Positions 51,899 through 56,288 of a DNA stretch of 64,000 nucleotides are shown piece after piece. The DNA comes from Candidatus Poribacteria bacterium (GTDB taxonomy: Bacteria; Poribacteria; WGA-4E; WGA-3G). Position numbers and translations under genes: made by a program. Below the pieces are notes generated by a model. The model had not been told where the DNA came from. It saw only the letters and a list, made by a program, of their open reading frames with translations, and searched no databases. The stretch spans positions 224,001-288,000 of the forward strand of contig CAXXUA010000006.1 in the NCBI GenBank assembly GCA_963663765.2, read 5' to 3'. The number at the start of each line of letters is the position of its first letter. The stretch's first letter is position 1.

Positions 51899-52015
51899 CT
51901 GACTTTTCAAAACCTTCACTTTTTCTACAAAAATCAAACTTTTCTTATATTTTTTTAAACCGTTCTTAAGAATTTCCTACTCATTATAACCGAAATCTAA
52001 TTAGGAATTCTGTAT

Positions 52016-53800
52016 ATGTACTTCAATTTTATACCCATAAGCGACCTGAAAGATGAAGATCTCGTCCCGCTTGTTCAAGCTCGTGACGAAACAGCATTCA
52101 AGGAATTGATGAATCGTTACAATCCAAAAATCTGGTTTGTAGTTAACGAAAATTCAAGACAACGCCAAGATGCTGAAGAGATCCTTATGGACATCTGGAT
52201 GGCAGTTTGGGATAACATTATCGGTTTGCGAAAACCAGAAAGTTTTGGCGGTTGGTTACGCAGAATCGCACATAACGCCTGCAAAAGATACTACGCATCG
52301 GGAAAAAATCAGCATAGTGAAATACTATTAGATTACGATGAACTAACTCTACAGATTGATAGAGAAGCGGAACAACGTTTTCAAAACGCAAGACTACGAT
52401 CTGATGCAAGAGAAGCAGTACATCAACTTCCACAACGCATAGTGTCTGTCGCGAGATTATACTATCTTGAGCAGTGGAACGTCAATGAGATCGCTACTGA
52501 ACTCAACTTAGCTGTCGGTACTGTAAAGTCAAAACTCAGTGAAGTACGGAAACTGCTAAGAAAAGAATTTGAGGTTGAACCTATAAGGAGAGAAACTATG
52601 TCAGCTAACATGCAAAACAATGAAAACGAACAGAAAAAAATAAAAATTATAGGTGTTGGCGGTGCTGGATGTAACACTGTTAAACGCCTAATTGATGAAA
52701 GTTTGAGAAACACTGAATTCTATGTTGTTGATACTGATAAGGAAACCCTTAGTTCTTGCAATGAGGTGACACAAGTACAAATCGGTATAAACAATCTTAA
52801 AGGGCAAAGTACCAACGGAAACCTGGAACTTGGGAAAAGGGCAGCTGCGGAAAGTATGGATGAACTACGTACTATCGTCTCAGACGCAAATCTAGTTTTT
52901 GTAATTGCAGGTATGGGGGGAGGAACTGGTACTGCCGTTGCACCAGTTATTACTTCACTGGCACGCCAACAAAAAGCATTGACGATCTGTATGGCAACAC
53001 GTCCATTTGAAGTAGAGGGAAAACTACGCTCAGAACAGGCAGAAGAAGGGATAAGGGAACTGCACAGTAACGAGCATCCCCAAGCTGATGCAGTTATCAT
53101 TGTCCCAAACCAGCGAATACTCGATTTAGTTGACGTGGATTTACCTATACCACAAGCATATTTGGAAAGTGATGAAATTTTGGTACAAGGTGTAAGTCTT
53201 ATCGCAGAAATGGTTACACATAATGGTGAAATAAGTGTAGACTTAGAAGATATTCAATCAATACTGCAAGACAAAGGAACTGTTCTAATGAGTTTCGGCA
53301 AAGCTAATGGCGAAAATAGAGCAAGAATCGCTGCACGGAACGCAATATCCTCACCCTTATTGGAAGAGAGTAAAGTCAATGAGGAATCTGCAGTCATTGT
53401 TGGTATCGCATCTCCACCAGATTTTACCTTTCATGAATTAGATGAAACCATGAAGGAAATAGTTAAAGAAACCCCACCTGAACAGATTATGTTTGGATTA
53501 GTATATAAAAAAGAACTGGAGGCAACTGGGGAAGTGATAGTAACAATCATTTCAACAATACCTGATTCTTCTAAACAGCAAGTACTTACAATTGACACCA
53601 GTAAGGACACAGAAGCTCCCACTGATGATAAGACCGTTTCCGCATCAAAAAAACAAGAATTTACACATCAACCCAAATACAGTAATTATGATCTTTCATA
53701 TCTTATAAATCAAGTACCCGTAAATGTTAAAACAACCATTGAACAAGGTATTACTGCCACAGTAAAAAATCAACCACAGTCAGCAAAACTACAAAGTTGA
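52016..53800 (+). CDS. ECF sigma factor fused to an FtsZ/tubulin-like GTPase domain
   Basis: Sigma region 2 (DAEEILMDIW, SFGGWLRRIAHN) and region 4 (EIATELNLAVGTVKSKL), then IKIIGVGGAGCN, AGMGGGTGT, RPFEVEG, AISSPLLE in one frame. Confidence 0.9.
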   Translation: MYFNFIPISDLKDEDLVPLVQARDETAFKELMNRYNPKIWFVVNENSRQRQDAEEILMDIWMAVWDNIIGLRKPESFGGWLRRIAHNACKRYYASGKNQHSEILLDYDELTLQIDREAEQRFQNARLRSDAREAVHQLPQRIVSVARLYYLEQWNVNEIATELNLAVGTVKSKLSEVRKLLRKEFEVEPIRRETMSANMQNNENEQKKIKIIGVGGAGCNTVKRLIDESLRNTEFYVVDTDKETLSSCNEVTQVQIGINNLKGQSTNGNLELGKRAAAESMDELRTIVSDANLVFVIAGMGGGTGTAVAPVITSLARQQKALTICMATRPFEVEGKLRSEQAEEGIRELHSNEHPQADAVIIVPNQRILDLVDVDLPIPQAYLESDEILVQGVSLIAEMVTHNGEISVDLEDIQSILQDKGTVLMSFGKANGENRARIAARNAISSPLLEESKVNEESAVIVGIASPPDFTFHELDETMKEIVKETPPEQIMFGLVYKKELEATGEVIVTIISTIPDSSKQQVLTIDTSKDTEAPTDDKTVSASKKQEFTHQPKYSNYDLSYLINQVPVNVKTTIEQGITATVKNQPQSAKLQS

Positions 53801-53816
53801 TATAATAATTACTGTG

Positions 53817-54612
53817 TTGTGGTAGGGGTTTCCAACCCCGATTTCTGAATCATGGATGACGCGAAATGCACAAATCTAAAACCCTTGATGAGGTAAATCC
53901 TGAAAATCTCAAAATCCTGAAAATCCTAGTTCAAACAGAATCGCGGAGTAGATCCCTGTATAAAGTCTTATTGCATAGTATAAGCGTTTTCAAAGCCAAA
54001 ACACTTTATGCAGGTATCTTCTCCGCGCAATCCGCGTAATCCGATATTTCGCACCCAACCTCTTGTGGTAGGGGTTTCCAACCCCGTTTTCTGAATCATG
54101 TATGACGCAAAATGCACAATTCAAAAACCTTTGATGAGGTAAATCCTGAAAATCTCAAAATCCTGAAAATCCTGGTTCAGACAAACTGTCTTCTCCGCGC
54201 AATCCGCGTAATCCGTGATTTCACACCCACCCTCTTATGGGCTTACAATTACCCATAAGTTTTTGGGTATAGTCCGTTAAGTCTTTTGTGGGTGCCTATT
54301 GCTCAAAAACACCTGAAAACTGACCAATATTTTAGATGTAGAATACCGTTATAGGCCTATTAGACAAGTTTCACAAGATTTTTCAGTTCTTATGACCAGT
54401 TTTCTGTAATCTATCGGGGTTAGAAACCCCTCTTACAGCAGCATGGCGTGCCTTTGTACCTCCAATTTGACTTATGGGTAAAAGTAGGTCTTGTGGGAGG
54501 GGTTTTCAACCCCGATTTCTGAATCATGTATGACGCGAAATGCATACATCAAAAACCTTGATGAGGTAAATCCTGAAAATCTCAAAATCCTGATAATCCT
54601 GGTTCAGACAGA
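53817..54612 (+). repeat. Three dispersed-tandem copies of an approximately 125-bp REP + AATCCTGAAAAT unit
   Basis: TTGTGG(T/G)AGGGGTTT...CTGAATCATG...GATGAGGTAAATCCTGAAAATCTCAAAATCCTG at 53817, 54063 and 54491. Confidence 0.85.
54240..54490. mobile_element. 251-bp MITE inserted in the third repeat unit
   Basis: GGCTTACAATTACCCATAAGT ... ACTTATGGGTAAAAGTAGGTC; flanks TTATG/TTGTG; removal restores the repeat unit. Confidence 0.75.
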
Positions 54613-54831
54613 ATCCGCAATCCAGATTCAGACAATCCCCCAAATCCAATGTATATCTATTAGAAATCCCTTGTCCTTAACCCCACATAAACCCCCATCC
54701 GCACCCAACCTCCAATTATAATAATAACATTATTACTGATCTTTGTAGCACAAACTGTTAGTTTGTGCATTATTCCGCATCACTCCTAACAACTCAACGA
54801 GGACAAAAACATGCAACAACAAATCTTCCAA

Positions 54832-56288
54832 GGGTGTGTAAAGTTTTTATCACAAGAATGTACTGAATACAGATCTTGCTTAGTATTAGGTAAAATGGTA
54901 TCCTTCTATAAAACAGAATTTTTATCAGAGAGGATACCAATGTTTAGTATATCATTAGCAAGTTGTGAAGTCAAAGAGTTTAGAGAAGATGCAAACCATT
55001 TTGTAGAAAAGATCAATAATGTTTTACAAACCCTTAGTTCAGACAGTCTTTATGTAGACGCTATGGAGATATTAGTCTTTGAGACGATGCGTTCGTTAGG
55101 TCAAATGATGTTAGAAATGGTTGTTCTCAAACATTCCGTTGAACAAGTTTCTGGATCTGTTGAATGTCCACAATGTCAACAAGCATGTCGTCCGTATCGT
55201 AAAAGAGAACGCCGTATTACGACGCTATGTGGTGTTATTCGTGTTGACCGTTGGGTGTATCGTTGTGCTTCGGGTCATTATCATTTTCCGTGGGATACGA
55301 AAGAAAAGTTGAAAGGTCAATACACACATCGTGTAGCTGAAGTGATGTGTCGTATGCCTGCGCGTCTTGACTTCAGGGAGGCAGCAGAGGAGTTGTTTCG
55401 TCAAGGGATAGAAGTCAGTCGGACGACCCTCAATCAAAATGTGCGTGAATGGTCAAAAGCGTTGCGGGATTCACAACAAGTGGAAACACAAAAACTTGAG
55501 GCAAATCAGCGTTGGTATGTGAGTTGTGATGGATGCCACACCAACTCACAAGAGGGGTGGAAAGAAACCAAAGTTGGTTGTATTTATAGAGATTATCCAC
55601 AACCTCCAAATAGTTCTGATGTGACACCGAGTGCGAGAACACCAAGCATTCGTTATGTTGCGGAGCGTGAGAATGCGGCTCATTTCGGTAAAGCGTTGTA
55701 TAAGTTAGCAACGCAGAGCGGCATCTATTAAGAAGATATAGGGACGCAAGAGGTCGTGTTTATCGGAGATGGAGCGGCGTGGATATGGAACTTAGCGGCT
55801 GAATACTTCCCGAATGCTGTAGAGATTGTGGATTAATGCATGCCAAATCACATCTTTATGATGTGGCTAAAGTTGCCTTTGGTGAGACAGAAACAGAAGT
55901 CGTAGAAACTTGGGTCACAGAGACAGAACCCTTTCTTTTTGATGGCAACATTCCAGAAGTTGTCTCACGTATCCGTGCTTTAGTCACACAGCACCCAGAC
56001 GTTTGTGAGATTTTAGTAAGAGAAACAGGTTATTTTGAAAAACACGCGAAACGGATGTAATATAAAACGTTTAGAGAAAAGGGGTATCAGGTTGGGAGTG
56101 GTGTGATTGAGAGTGCGTGTAAACATGTTGTGGGACAAAGGTGTAAACAAGCTGCTATGAGATGGAAAAAAGAAGGTATCAACTCAGTGCTTGCTTTACG
56201 GTGTTTAGTCAAAAATAAGGCGTTGGACAGATATTGGATGCAACGCCCACAAGCAGCATGAAACTTATAACCAAAACTTTACACACCC
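54832..56288 (+). mobile_element. ISKra4/ISLre2-type insertion sequence
   Basis: Perfect 16-bp TIRs GGGTGTGTAAAGTTTT (54832-54847) and AAAACTTTACACACCC (56273-56288); no flank duplication seen. Confidence 0.88.
54940..56261 (+). pseudogene. Inactivated transposase
   Basis: CDG, GDGAAWIW, GSGVIESACK...MRW motifs broken by stops at 55729 and 56058 and a frameshift near 55835. Confidence 0.88.

Follow-up and report, generated by a model that had tools for sequence, protein, structure and literature searches.

The window, a stretch of 64,000 nucleotides from the genome of a Candidatus Poribacteria sponge symbiont, contains at positions 52016 to 53800 of the forward strand, on which all features described below also lie, an intact open reading frame that starts with ATG, includes its stop codon and encodes a protein of 594 residues. 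An earlier reading made from the letters alone (the sequence-only reading) had delimited exactly this frame and had proposed that it encodes an ECF sigma factor joined to an FtsZ domain, an architecture that is borne out by Pfam and NCBIfam and is conserved under selection. The protein is a conserved and genuine one, consisting of an ECF sigma factor, a flexible linker and a complete FtsZ-type GTPase, referred to here as FtsZ2, and it ends in a tail that is a remnant of a PHP domain. Its main start is preceded by a putative, weak ribosome-binding site, AGGAA (52003 to 52007). The gene comes after that of an ABC permease, and the other upstream neighbors encode an enolase-superfamily enzyme, an SDR and TatD; downstream are repeats and a broken ISKra4 transposase gene. 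Among the neighbors screened there is no division gene and no recognizable anti-sigma gene or family, as the sequence-only reading had stated, and no defense gene is seen to adjoin the gene. In most ECF groups the cognate anti-sigma factor is encoded nearby. Lack of such a gene is typical of the ECF sigma factors with C-terminal extensions that are described in PMC7826278.

The ECF sigma domain spans approximately residues 13 to 185. Region 2 (residues 13 to 94; 52052 to 52297) is matched by Pfam Sigma70_r2 at residues 31 to 95 (E = 3.5e-8) and has AF2 helices at residues 13 to 94, with a pLDDT of ~75 to 89. Region 4 (residues 130 to 185; 52403 to 52570) is matched by Sigma70_r4_2 at residues 133 to 181 (E = 1e-5) with 25.5 bits, slightly below the cut-off of 25.7, and by Sigma70_r4 at residues 135 to 183, with AF2 helices at residues 140 to 184. 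The NCBIfam sigma70-ECF model TIGR02937 matches residues 27 to 184 with 71.1 bits (cut-off 42.9), and the PDB sequence matches over residues 10 to 197 are to the ECF sigma factors SigH, SigE, SigW and RpoE. With regions 2 and 4 present and no Pfam match to region 1 or 3, the protein belongs to the ECF (group 4) sigma factors. Its closest sigma paralogs within the genome have ~850 to 900 residues and carry WD40 domains (sigma-WD40 proteins). A tree groups the sigma domains that are fused to FtsZ, WD40 and PHP in a single clade (SH-aLRT 100) and places 10 other ECF sigma factors of the genome outside it. A single sigma clade with varying C-terminal modules fits a constant output that is joined to a variable input. 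The one run guessed to be of RNA (X10) gave a single contig of 246 nucleotides, which corresponds to positions 52325 to 52570.

The FtsZ core is complete (residues 206 to 517). Its N-terminal GTPase domain (residues 206 to 400; 52631 to 53215), delimited by Pfam, motif tallies and Foldseek, is matched by Pfam Tubulin at residues 208 to 372 (E = 4.9e-38) and includes the T1 motif GGAGCN (residues 215 to 220; 52658 to 52675), the T4 motif GGGTGTA (residues 301 to 307; 52916 to 52936) and RPFEVEG (residues 329 to 335; 53000 to 53020). The C-terminal subdomain (residues 401 to 517; 53216 to 53566), delimited by Pfam and T7 tallies, is matched by Pfam FtsZ_C at residues 421 to 514 (E = 2.3e-15) and includes the T7 loop GEISVDLEDI (residues 404 to 413; 53225 to 53254). 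All four motifs had been quoted in the sequence-only reading. The GTPase signature GGGTG[ST]G is thus present together with FtsZ_C, with its final Gly replaced, and the core of the T7 loop, SVDLED, keeps both Asp residues and has Ser in place of the Asn of NVDLED, which is found in the paralog of the same genome. In FtsZ, the NxDxxD of this loop supplies the catalytic residues. Foldseek aligns FtsZ2 to solved FtsZ structures with TM scores of 0.92 to 0.94, an rmsd of 1.7 to 2.0 Å and ~38% identity. The ftsZ equivalog model TIGR00065 matches residues 196 to 528 with 285.3 bits, below its cut-off of 295.2, compared with 390.1 bits for the canonical copy of the genome. That FtsZ2 is the division FtsZ of the cell can be rejected, because a separate, canonical ftsZ lies beside ftsA and FtsZ2 falls into a distinct clade. 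The canonical protein ends in DIPAFLR, and the DIPxFL-type tail is absent from the window protein, as had been claimed; canonical ftsZ is detected in 150 of 151 Poribacteria genomes.

The remainder of the protein (53567 to 53797), assigned by gapless alignment to the long forms of the family and by AF2, consists of a disordered segment (residues 518 to 566) and a DnaE PHP remnant (residues 548 to 594). It includes a predicted helix at residues 569 to 584 (53720 to 53767), in which the block of residues 571 to 580 has a pLDDT of 83. In the long forms, the N-terminal ~40 residues of the PHP domain are the counterpart of the tail, with no gap in the alignment. The metal-binding HxH motif is lost in the tail, HLHNH having become HQPKY, and the window protein has no PHP match in Pfam.

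The unit at 51947 to 53840 is duplicated in the genome. The second copy (contig C13 of genome G000) contains a paralogous frame of 594 residues (L003, 916 to 2700) with ~95% protein identity to that of the window. In the alignment, the 69 nucleotides 5' of the ATG are 100% identical between the copies and the sequences farther 5' are unrelated, while downstream identity ends at approximately 53840, inside a repeat.

Conservation, selection and origin of the fusion

Among the matches listed, a query that spans the junction between sigma and FtsZ2 matches in 90 of the 96 genomes of three genera (35 of 38 in g1, 54 of 57 in g2 and the single genome of g4) and in none of the 55 other Poribacteria genomes (0 of 4 in g3 and g5, 0 of 51 in other families), where matches with E weaker than 1.6e-28 were counted as non-spanning. 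Counted by hand and by genome among the matches listed, the long, mid and short architectures number 52, 24 and 68, respectively. A search of genome contigs with a single junction peptide returned two close Poribacteria relatives and three partial, chance-like matches. Confirmation of the junction, which the sequence-only reading had asked for, comes from contigs of two runs from two other studies that cover it (approximately 52586 to 52631) without indels, namely record 2 of X2 (51948 to 53218) and record 10 of X6 (51900 to 53727); the contigs of a third run (X8) do not bridge it. Neither these contigs nor the relatives have a stop codon at the junction, which that reading had named as a finding that would speak against it. 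An assembly artifact can be rejected, given the fusion in 90 of 96 genomes, several of them single-contig, and the bridging contigs of the two outside studies.

Both halves of the fusion are under purifying selection. Relative to orthologs (dS of ~0.5), omega is 0.16 to 0.18 for the sigma half, 0.14 to 0.16 for the GTPase domain, 0.41 to 0.47 for the C-terminal subdomain and 0.36 to 0.52 for the tail, values that reject a pseudogene and do not show the neutrally evolving FtsZ half that the sequence-only reading had raised as a contrary outcome. Even between the recent copies within the genome, omega of the sigma and GTPase domains is 0.10 to 0.19, and that of the C-terminal subdomain is 1.37 (19 non-synonymous and 4 synonymous changes), a value based on only 23 substitutions. 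Compared with the canonical copy, the C-terminal subdomain is approximately nine times less constrained (omega of 0.47 vs. 0.054), the constraint on FtsZ2 of the window is 3 to 9 times lower and FtsZ2 evolves approximately four times faster, as measured by path lengths. The short form B, which lacks the whole C-terminal subdomain and the T7 loop and keeps the nucleotide-binding face, is more widespread and more constrained than any other form, with an omega of 0.09 to 0.10 for its FtsZ part. Among the 37 rows of lineage A, which comprises the forms with a full T7 loop, GGGTGT is kept in 36, the T7 Glu in all 37, the second T7 Asp in 36, the T7 Asn in 24 (Ser in 11) and the first T7 Asp in 25. 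With the C-terminal subdomain relaxed and the T7 Asn lost in 13 of the 37 A rows, the filament-type GTPase activity of FtsZ2 may be weakened.

Phylogenetic analysis against canonical ftsZ, which the sequence-only reading had suggested, revealed an FtsZ half that arose as a paralog long ago and is distinct from the division FtsZ. Every non-canonical FtsZ of the family falls into a single clade (UFboot 99 / SH-aLRT 97), nested within the FtsZ clade of the family (100/99). FtsZ2 therefore descends from an old duplication of the lineage's own ftsZ, and in the tree its clade predates the fusions. In genus g3 FtsZ2 is unfused, and in the sister genus g5 it is fused to DnaN, with no sigma domain. The 594-residue form of the window is a truncated derivative of a sigma-FtsZ2-DnaE triple fusion of ~1,435 residues, from which the polymerase has been lost and a PHP remnant of ~40 residues has been kept. 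The DnaE core of the triple fusion covers positions 1 to 881 of the 1,022-position DnaE model and is 67% identical to the housekeeping DnaE, against 65% to the product of a second full-length dnaE of the genome (L038). DnaE alone is joined to a sigma domain of the same clade in P0127 and P0285.

The loss of the DnaE part, the repeats and the broken insertion sequence that adjoin the gene, the relaxed C-terminal subdomain and tail and the TIGR00065 score slightly below cut-off could all be taken to mean that the gene is a decaying relic of the triple fusion that is heading for loss. The selection data largely refute this reading, to which we give next to no probability: the frame is intact in both copies of the genome and in orthologs at 77 to 79% identity, the low omega of the sigma and GTPase domains persists between the recent copies, the 69-nucleotide promoter region is identical between these copies despite a coding dS of 0.074, and the tail motif is kept across mid forms that are only ~50% identical to each other.

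Linker and predicted internal start

The two halves are connected by a disordered linker (residues 186 to 205; 52571 to 52630; AF2 pLDDT of ~30 for residues 188 to 205), whose length and EPIRRxTM motif are conserved. Within it lies a predicted second start (52585 to 52600), which consists of the Shine-Dalgarno sequence AAGGAG (52585 to 52590) and an ATG (52598 to 52600) at Met195. In all 36 A rows examined (33 ATG and 3 GTG) and in 18 of 20 B rows, a start codon precedes the FtsZ core by 13 residues, and Shine-Dalgarno pairing ranks in the top 5% of the windows of the respective gene in 34 of the 36 A rows and 18 of the 20 B rows. For these counts the 16S tail was taken from the genome sequence, and the rows omitted a variant from genome G044 that is nearly devoid of sigma (L075) as well as L077, which is the same gene as L036. 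The Shine-Dalgarno sequence and start are conserved in their nucleotides, whereas the residues encoded there vary; the three Met-to-Val changes keep GTG as a start codon. The signal is absent from the DnaN-FtsZ junction, and the true start of unfused FtsZ2 has an equally strong one. Judged by these sequence features, the internal start is predicted to yield an additional, free FtsZ2 of 400 residues.

Conservation of the start at a junction with varying residues, its match in strength to the start of unfused FtsZ2 and its absence from the DnaN-FtsZ junction would also suit an incidental fusion, in which a sigma-ftsZ2 operon has lost the sigma stop codon and the partners are independent of each other apart from co-expression. 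The gene would then give two products, a sigma factor that is either cleaved off at the linker or an inert part of the fusion, and free FtsZ2 translated from the internal Shine-Dalgarno sequence and ATG. Such an arrangement would also accommodate the disordered linker and the G044 variant, in which most of the sigma domain is missing and the open frame begins late in sigma region 4. We regard it as decidedly unlikely, however, because the frame is open across the junction in 90 of 96 genomes although dS is saturated between distant members, which is unexpected for a neutral fusion. The conserved length and EPIRRxTM motif of the linker and the positive docking prediction described below also argue against it.

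Proposed role of FtsZ2 and comparison with known systems

A putative ECF-type, bipartite promoter-like element lies upstream of the gene (51949 to 51986), consisting of a T-tract with TAAACC (51956 to 51961), an 18-nucleotide spacer and CTCATTA (51980 to 51986). The consensus TTTAAACC-N18-CTCTWTA precedes all six sigma-clade genes of the genome, and the element, with its spacing fixed at 18 nucleotides, recurs before genes of types A, B and sigma-WD40 in two genera. A strict pattern matches the genome 4 times (0.07 expected) and a medium pattern 8 times (2.6 expected), 6 of the 8 preceding the six sigma-clade genes. In a scan with a PWM, which was built with a few mis-anchored sites (L020, L023, L027 and L107-L109), the sites of the six sigma-clade genes are among the top seven; only these six genes stand above shuffled background across the genome, with no output regulon visible. 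Promoters of ECF sigma factors are bipartite (-35/-10) and usually autoregulated. We propose from this distribution that the element may be an autoregulated ECF-type promoter, and it could alternatively be read by another factor.

Docking of the sigma half (residues 1 to 190) on FtsZ2 (residues 200 to 520) with one predictor gave an ipSAE of 0.74 (runs of 0.74, 0.73 and 0.75), compared with 0.00 for the best of three controls. The runs share at least 93% of contacts, with a partner pLDDT of at least 74. Solved complexes attain the docking mark in 58 of 80 cases and mismatched pairs in 2 of 110, rates that are approximate since our own alignment was used. No solved sigma-FtsZ complex is known, which makes it unlikely that the predictor reproduced an existing structure. 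Sigma region 2 is predicted by this model to contact the FtsZ2 GTPase domain, through sigma residues 15 to 24 and 65 to 72 and FtsZ2 residues 271 to 285 and 307 to 318, the latter in the part that is kept by the short paralog. The AF2 monomer of the window protein has a beads-on-a-string layout with long disordered linkers. Neither it (pTM of 0.54) nor that of the short paralog (pTM of 0.44) has a confident inter-domain geometry, and so they do not corroborate the docking. The interface residues do not discriminate between the sigma domains fused to FtsZ and those fused to WD40; they are equally conserved in both, and their conservation is thus not explained by contact with FtsZ.

The sequence-only reading had suggested that the sigma factor is controlled by GTP binding or by co-polymerization, and we likewise infer that control by GTP or co-polymerization may operate here. 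At a probability of roughly 0.4, we propose that the protein is an autoregulated, one-component sigma factor in which FtsZ2 serves as an attached anti-sigma factor that responds to GTP or to assembly. The sigma half would read the consensus element before its own gene and five clade siblings, and the FtsZ2 GTPase domain would stand in for an absent anti-sigma factor. At rest, the helix H3/H4 face of FtsZ2 would lie on sigma region 2 and mask its surface for binding RNA polymerase and the -10 element, and GTP-dependent, head-to-tail assembly of FtsZ2 would alter this contact and set the level of active sigma. Candidate assembly partners are the protein itself, the division FtsZ, the short sigma-FtsZ2(N) paralog and the free FtsZ2 that the internal start is predicted to yield. 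With the nucleotide-binding face kept and the T7 face missing, the short paralog could only cap such assemblies and not extend them. Retention of GTP-binding and T7 residues, the predicted docking of FtsZ2 on sigma region 2 and the lack of a nearby anti-sigma gene lend indirect support to control of the sigma factor by GTP or co-polymerization. The occurrence of FtsZ2 fused to DnaN without sigma in g5 and unfused in g3 points to a separate function of FtsZ2, which a model of it as a sensor alone leaves unexplained. Tentatively, and with some doubt, the proposal may be extended to a system in which GTP-dependent assembly of the FtsZ type sets how much sigma is available: transcription of a small, self-amplifying sigma circuit would read the polymerization state of a second FtsZ, the polypeptide of relatives would add a DNA polymerase III alpha core, and with the internal start one gene would encode the sensing sigma factor as well as a free partner for assembly.

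Alternatively, the FtsZ2 filament may be a scaffold or tether that positions cargo, such as sigma with RNA polymerase or promoter DNA, DnaE and DnaN, with regulation of sigma not being the point. TubZ/TubR plasmid partition couples a filament of the tubulin/FtsZ family to a helix-turn-helix DNA-binding module, and the scaffold could be likened to a TubZ/TubR in one polypeptide that organizes the transcription and replication machinery. The window protein differs from that system in being a single polypeptide, in being FtsZ-like rather than TubZ-like and in that no centromere-like repeats were found. Several features suit a scaffold: independent fusions have linked FtsZ2 to a DnaE core and to DnaN, replisome proteins that bind each other; the FtsZ2 clade is older than the fusions; the beads-on-a-string model resembles the core-linker-peptide layout of canonical FtsZ; and the A forms keep the full T7 face. 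We nevertheless consider a scaffold unlikely, for the commonest and most constrained form, B, is without the C-terminal subdomain and T7 loop and cannot extend a filament, WD40 propellers are found fused to sigma domains of this clade as well, which better fits a sensor module, and a scaffold does not need the predicted docking.

Phages commonly inhibit essential proteins such as FtsZ and DnaE and might do so in this host, and FtsZ2 could conceivably be an integrated decoy. The sigma factor would bear a bait (FtsZ, DnaE or the generic binding module WD40), and binding of a phage inhibitor would free it to start a defense or stress program. In favor are a single sigma clade with a single promoter type, whose members are variously fused to FtsZ, FtsZ and DnaE, DnaE alone or WD40, the fast evolution of FtsZ2 relative to canonical FtsZ and the omega of 1.37, which hints at diversification of the C-terminal subdomain. 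Against these points, that omega comes from so few substitutions, no defense genes are seen next to the gene and no regulon is found past the sigma genes themselves, and we judge a decoy highly improbable.

ECF sigma factors with C-terminal regulatory extensions, the existence of which the sequence-only reading had stated, are described in PMC7826278, including SnoaL-like (ECF41, ECF56 and ECF294), TPR (ECF42) and Cys-rich (ECF238) types. The window protein is like them in its sigma2 and sigma4 core, in the domain that follows sigma4 and in the lack of a nearby anti-sigma gene. A putative autoregulated promoter precedes its gene, and its extension, like theirs, would be expected to contact and modulate the core. 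It is unlike them in that its extension is a cytoskeletal GTPase of ~400 residues, FtsZ, to which relatives add a DnaE polymerase core, and in that the junction holds a predicted internal start. Compared with canonical FtsZ (TIGR00065), FtsZ2 has the same fold and has largely kept the T1, T4 and T7 motifs, whereas it has an N-terminal sigma domain, lies outside the division cluster and is without the C-terminal peptide that binds FtsA/ZipA. Planctomycete-type ECF sigma factors reportedly have large WD40-containing extensions, as Jogler et al. (2012), a paper cited in PMC7826278, are said to have found; the closest sigma paralogs in the genome carry WD40 likewise, and the window gene has FtsZ instead. 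With class I anti-sigma domains there is a functional analogy, since on our proposal FtsZ2 would cover surfaces of sigma region 2 as an anti-sigma factor does, without relation in sequence or fold, the masking domain being a GTPase in the same polypeptide.

In the literature searched, at the level of abstracts and for the most part outside subscription journals, no sigma-FtsZ or sigma-FtsZ-DnaE fusion is described. Term look-ups found no such fusion in the text available from PMC7826278, PMC8999054, PMC7671368, PMC9871819 and PMC2875224. The words FtsZ, tubulin and Poribacteria do not occur in the main text of any of three ECF papers, PMC7826278 among them; GTPase is absent from the main text of PMC7826278 and GTP from those of the other two. 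The ECF extension types listed in Supplementary Table S2 and Text S2 of PMC7826278 may bear on novelty. Whereas built-in sensor domains in ECF sigma factors, as well as FtsZ paralogs, are already known, a sigma factor with a cytoskeletal GTPase domain, and a single protein that combines a sigma factor, FtsZ and a DNA polymerase core, appear to be new in the literature searched. If FtsZ2 gates sigma, gene expression would be linked directly to the assembly of a division-type protein or to its nucleotide state, and the polypeptide of relatives would physically tie transcription, a division-type cytoskeletal GTPase and replication. How division, replication and transcription are coupled is a long-standing question, for which this would offer a compact system open to testing in a surrogate host. 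The natural series of unfused, sigma-fused, N-domain-only, DnaE-fused and DnaN-fused forms could be used for dissecting the function of a second bacterial FtsZ, and the predicted internal start suggests that gene fusions can retain such a start and give two products. A representative search also returned a divergent sigma and Tubulin protein, P0149, which is 35% identical and whose sigma domain falls outside the clade.

An ECF sigma factor joined to an FtsZ paralog

The gene at 52016-53800 (+) is a 594-aa open reading frame without interruption, which confirms the observation of a sigma-FtsZ fusion gene. Residues 27-184 match the NCBIfam sigma70-ECF profile (71.1 bits, cut-off 42.9), including Pfam Sigma70_r2 (residues 31-95) and r4/r4_2 (residues 133-183), while residues 196-528 are an almost full-length FtsZ (TIGR00065, 285.3 bits, just below the cut-off of 295.2), including Pfam Tubulin (residues 208-372, E 4.9e-38) and FtsZ_C (residues 421-514, E 2.3e-15). 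The profiles and the unbroken frame bear out the sequence-only reading that sigma regions 2 and 4 continue into an FtsZ fold, and the FtsZ motifs that it quoted are all found (residues 215-220, 301-307, 329-335 and 404-413). By sequence, residues 10-197 resemble solved ECF sigmas, such as SigH, SigE, SigW and RpoE, and residues 204-554 resemble solved FtsZ structures, best of all 4m8i (E 4.7e-67). An AlphaFold2 model from an alignment of 64 family members (pTM 0.54) predicts a layout like beads on a string, with confident sigma2 (13-94), sigma4 (130-185) and terminal helix (569-584), an FtsZ core (206-517) with pLDDT of about 90 and a disordered linker (188-205) and stretch (518-566). The modelled core agrees with solved FtsZ at a target-normalised TM of 0.92-0.94 and rmsd of 1.7-2.0 A.

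The window lies on contig 6 of a genome (6.35 Mb, 97.8% complete) that contains four FtsZ-like loci: a canonical ftsZ that adjoins ftsA (447 aa, 390 bits, T7 loop GEINVDFADV, tail DIPAFLR), the window gene, a second 594-aa copy of it on contig 13 and a short sigma+FtsZ gene whose 406-aa product stops just ahead of the T7 loop. The long and mid-length genes, including the window gene, are referred to here as A and the short ones as B. Although the FtsZ half shares fold and motifs with division FtsZ, it scores below the equivalog cut-off, lacks the C-terminal peptide and lies outside a division cluster, in line with the missing DIPxFL tail and division-gene neighbors noticed before; because of these three differences it is best called an FtsZ paralog.

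A query spanning the junction (residues 121-300; E <= 1e-40) gave a bimodal outcome among 151 Poribacteria genomes. Matches across the junction were confined to one family: genus g1 has them in 35 of its 38 genomes (the window's genome included; the exceptions are G027, G146 and G044), g2 in 54 of 57 and g4 in its single genome; none was found in the four g3 and g5 genomes or in 51 genomes of eight other families. Canonical FtsZ is present in 150 of the 151. Contigs from two other studies cover the junction without an indel (run X2, 51948-53218; run X6, 51900-53727), as the sequence-only reading had asked of independent sequence, and the junction was not bridged in a third run examined. Given the matches across the family and these bridging contigs, the fusion is real and inherited. 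Relatives that carry a name are MAGs of Candidatus Poribacteria; one run with matching sequence is labelled sponge metagenome. In G044, an A-lineage gene (L075, G044:C1:4939253-4940515) has a 430-aa open frame that begins late in sigma region 4 and therefore misses most of the sigma factor; this natural variant keeps the FtsZ part and the internal Met.

Origin of the FtsZ half and of the window form

In many relatives the sigma-FtsZ module forms the first ~580 residues of a ~1,350-1,470-aa open frame. In a 1,435-aa protein of the same genus (L035, 597..4904 of G030:C1), Sigma70_r2, r4, Tubulin and FtsZ_C are followed by PHP, DNA_pol3_alpha, DNA_pol3_finger and HHH_6, a sigma-FtsZ-DnaE triple fusion also found at L036 (621..4901). 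The G030 and window loci correspond, since an upstream ABC-permease gene is common to both. The fused DnaE core shares 67% identity, in a gapless alignment, with the main (housekeeping) DnaE of the window's genome and stops past the HhH domain at position 881 of a 1,022-position model, so that it lacks the C-terminal region of full-length DnaE. By a hand count of the rows listed from the junction-spanning search (151 genomes sampled), about 52 genomes have long frames, 24 have mid-length ones (493-700 aa, the class of the window gene) and 68 have short ones (398-464 aa); genomes typically combine a single A gene, long or mid, with a single short B gene.

In FtsZ-domain trees, the canonical, A and B sequences of the family form one clade that no FtsZ from other Poribacteria families joins; A and B each occupy one side of a branch, the split inside A tracks genera, and the window gene, its in-genome copy and two orthologs are nested among DnaE-bearing forms. 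All mid forms end in ~40 residues that can be aligned gap-free with the first ~40 of the PHP domain, with the metal-binding HxH gone, the helix pattern IP[ED]xVxxxI[ED]NxVS retained and the ORF ending at about one point. From this nesting and the PHP-aligned tail, the form of the window gene is a truncated derivative of the triple fusion.

FtsZ has also been joined to the beta clamp: both g5 genomes carry an intact DnaN-FtsZ fusion (L134, G079:C1:2873068-2875185; L135, G108:C1:622931-625006; frames of 710 and 694 aa) together with free dnaN and canonical ftsZ, and the junction-spanning query found no sigma-FtsZ fusion in either. One g3 genome has an extra, unfused, core-only FtsZ of 308 aa. 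In a careful tree with 19 A, 10 B, two DnaN-fused and one unfused copy, all non-canonical copies form one clade (99/97) within the family clade (100/99), which places the FtsZ half relative to canonical ftsZ, a comparison that had been called for. This single clade points to one old duplication, hereafter FtsZ2, later joined to different partners. The window's genome also has a second full-length dnaE paralog (L038, C5:312245-315274), absent from G030 and G072, both close relatives; a small ECF sigma standing alone (L110, C5:309647-310150) is encoded about 2 kb upstream of it. A search with the DnaN-FtsZ protein detected tandem dnaN pairs in this genome (C5:1144392-1146686) and in G025 and G033.

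The junction itself retains a start signal. A start codon lies 13 residues ahead of the FtsZ core in 36/36 A rows (33 ATG, 3 GTG with Met to Val), and B rows have ATG at the junction position in 18/20, the other two having Met one residue off. At 7-11 nt upstream, a purine-rich GGAG/GAGG/GGGG core persists despite variation in the amino acids encoded. For its pairing with the 16S tail of the window's genome, the median is -7.8 kcal/mol versus a background of -2.4 (35 rows); the pairing falls in the top 5% of the gene's own windows in 34/36 A and 18/20 B rows, which are interrelated rather than independent. The true start of the unfused FtsZ2 has a comparable signal (-8.1 kcal/mol), and the DnaN-FtsZ junctions have none (0.4 and -1.5 kcal/mol). 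In the window, the internal SD occupies 52585-52590 (+) and the ATG starts at 52598 (+), and the gene probably also yields a free FtsZ2 with a predicted length of 400 aa. The simplest origin of the fusion is a sigma-ftsZ2 gene pair in which the sigma gene lost its stop codon. That the gene merely delivers two independent products of such an operon, its stop codon lost, seems rather improbable to us.

Relatives of the sigma half and a shared upstream element

In this genome, fusion seems to be the usual state of ECF sigmas: most of 34 ECF-like matches are N-terminal in long frames (463-1,247 aa). Some of these extensions match Sortilin/Vps10-type propellers. Six sigmas are mutually closest. Three of them belong to the two A genes and the B gene, and three to sigma-WD40 proteins of ~850-900 aa encoded on contig 11 (L109, C11:45906; L108, C11:52050; L107, C11:76938; frames 854-907 aa); the sigma domains of these WD40 proteins are the closest kin of the window gene's sigma. 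In the sigma tree these six, metagenomic sigma-WD40 proteins and a sigma-PHP protein (P0127, which has a cluster mate of 1,084 aa) form a clade (SH-aLRT 100) separate from ten other ECFs of the genome. As FtsZ-, WD40- and PHP-fused sigma domains fall into one clade, a single sigma type is seen, in this tree, to bear several alternative C-terminal modules. Database records call the short and WD40 forms just "sigma-70 family RNA polymerase sigma factor". Another sigma+Tubulin protein (P0149, NCBI source, 456 aa, on a 2,078-nt contig) is only 35% identical to the window protein, its sigma lies outside this clade on a long branch, and it is possibly an independent fusion in another lineage.

Every member examined, i.e., A genes of two genera, the B gene and the sigma-WD40 genes, is preceded by TTTTTTTAAACC-N18-CTCT[TA]TA, which has invariant spacing and begins 57-73 nt ahead of the ATG. 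In the window's genome the strict pattern occurs 4 times versus 0.07 expected from base composition, and a medium pattern 8 times versus 2.6 expected, 6 of these being the six clade genes. A PWM scan places the six among its top seven and finds no other site in this genome above shuffled background. The strict pattern has 4 matches in G030, 2 of them ahead of its A and B genes, and 1 in G097, ahead of its A gene; G035 and the tested genomes of g5 and g3 lack it, and a reversed-pattern control gave 0, 0, 0, 0 and 1 matches in those other genomes. Between the two in-genome copies the 69 nt ahead of the ATG are identical and similarity stops beyond. We read the element as a predicted ECF-type autoregulatory or cross-regulatory promoter, which this sigma itself may recognize.

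Constraint, predicted contact and proposed mechanism

Nei-Gojobori omega was calculated for the window gene against orthologs in G072 and G023 (dS ~0.5) and the in-genome copy L003 (dS 0.074), with canonical FtsZ of the window's genome and G072 as the control for the two FtsZ subdomains. Against G072 and G023, omega is 0.16 and 0.18 for sigma, 0.14 and 0.16 for the FtsZ GTPase domain (control 0.042), 0.47 and 0.41 for the C-subdomain (control 0.054) and 0.36 and 0.52 for the tail; against the in-genome copy it is 0.10, 0.19, 1.37 and 0.30, respectively. By these values the FtsZ half is constrained, its GTPase domain as much as sigma and less than division FtsZ. The neutral evolution that would have undone the sequence-only reading is not seen, and the selection data largely refute a decaying relic, the chance of which we consider negligible. 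Between the in-genome copies, the C-subdomain (53216-53566) has 19 non-synonymous and 4 synonymous changes, with the sigma and GTPase domains at omega 0.10-0.19, which could reflect relaxation or diversification after duplication. GGGTGT is retained in 36/37 A-lineage rows; in the T7 loop, all 37 have Glu, 36 the second Asp, 25 the first Asp and 24 Asn, which is replaced by Ser in 11, and canonical FtsZ has GEIN[VL]DFADV in 26/26 rows.

Prediction of a complex between residues 1-190 and 200-520, with an alignment of the family, scored 0.74 (runs 0.74, 0.73 and 0.75; best of three controls 0.00), with at least 93% contact agreement between runs and partner pLDDT of at least 74; in calibration, the mark applied is reached by 58 of 80 complexes of solved structure and by 2 of 110 mismatched pairs, counts that are rough for a user-supplied alignment. 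This docking, the output of a single predictor, supports binding of the sigma half to the FtsZ2 half. The predicted interface joins sigma 15-24 and 65-72, the end of the region-2 helix and the loop that in ECF sigmas is turned towards the clamp helices of the polymerase and the -10 element, with FtsZ2 271-285 and 307-318, made up of the T3 loop's end plus helix H3, and of helix H4 right after GGGTGT. The FtsZ2 side lies wholly within the N-domain kept by the B form. Two AF2 monomer models (pTM 0.54 and 0.44) do not corroborate a fixed arrangement, and the sigma interface residues are equally conserved in the WD40-fused siblings.

As the most likely mechanism (probability about 0.4), we propose an autoregulated one-component sigma factor with FtsZ2 in place of an anti-sigma factor. 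The FtsZ2 GTPase domain would mask sigma region 2, and its nucleotide state or head-to-tail assembly, with itself, free FtsZ2, the B form or division FtsZ, would alter the masking such that sigma is released or sequestered; the B form could only cap assembly, because it has the nucleotide face and misses the T7 face. The protein would work like ECF sigmas with fused regulatory extensions, and its sigma half shows the sequence hallmarks of an ECF sigma. The earlier interpretation is supported in part and considerably extended. The analysis establishes which domains are present, that the FtsZ half is a paralog, that the fusion is conserved and under selection, and that FtsZ motifs, the promoter element and a start signal at the junction are retained; recognition of the promoter, masking, GTP dependence, assembly and capping are what we infer. 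The DnaE and DnaN fusions would also suit a scaffold in which FtsZ2 positions RNA polymerase and replisome parts, a possible but doubtful explanation given the B form without T7 and the WD40 siblings. An integrated decoy that senses inhibitors of essential proteins is highly improbable.

ECF sigmas with a fused regulatory domain and FtsZ paralogs are known; here the partner is unusually surprising and the proposed mechanism testable. No description of a sigma-FtsZ, sigma-FtsZ-DnaE or DnaN-FtsZ protein was found in the literature searched, which covers few subscription journals, and the main texts of the ECF papers and FtsZ-family surveys consulted do not mention such fusions.

Downstream of the gene, 53817-54611 contains three copies of a ~121-nt repeat (at 53817, 54063 and 54491), a second repeat of 52 nt and GGGGTTTCCAACCCC-type inverted arms. 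From 53776 onward, metagenome contig depth rises 4-10 fold, which marks a multi-copy REP/MITE-like element; it is also found downstream of the contig-13 copy. Beyond it, the ORFs at 54811-55731 and 55836-56060 are fragments of a single ISKra4-family transposase (83.8 and 18.2 bits, under the cut-off of 205), a broken IS element.
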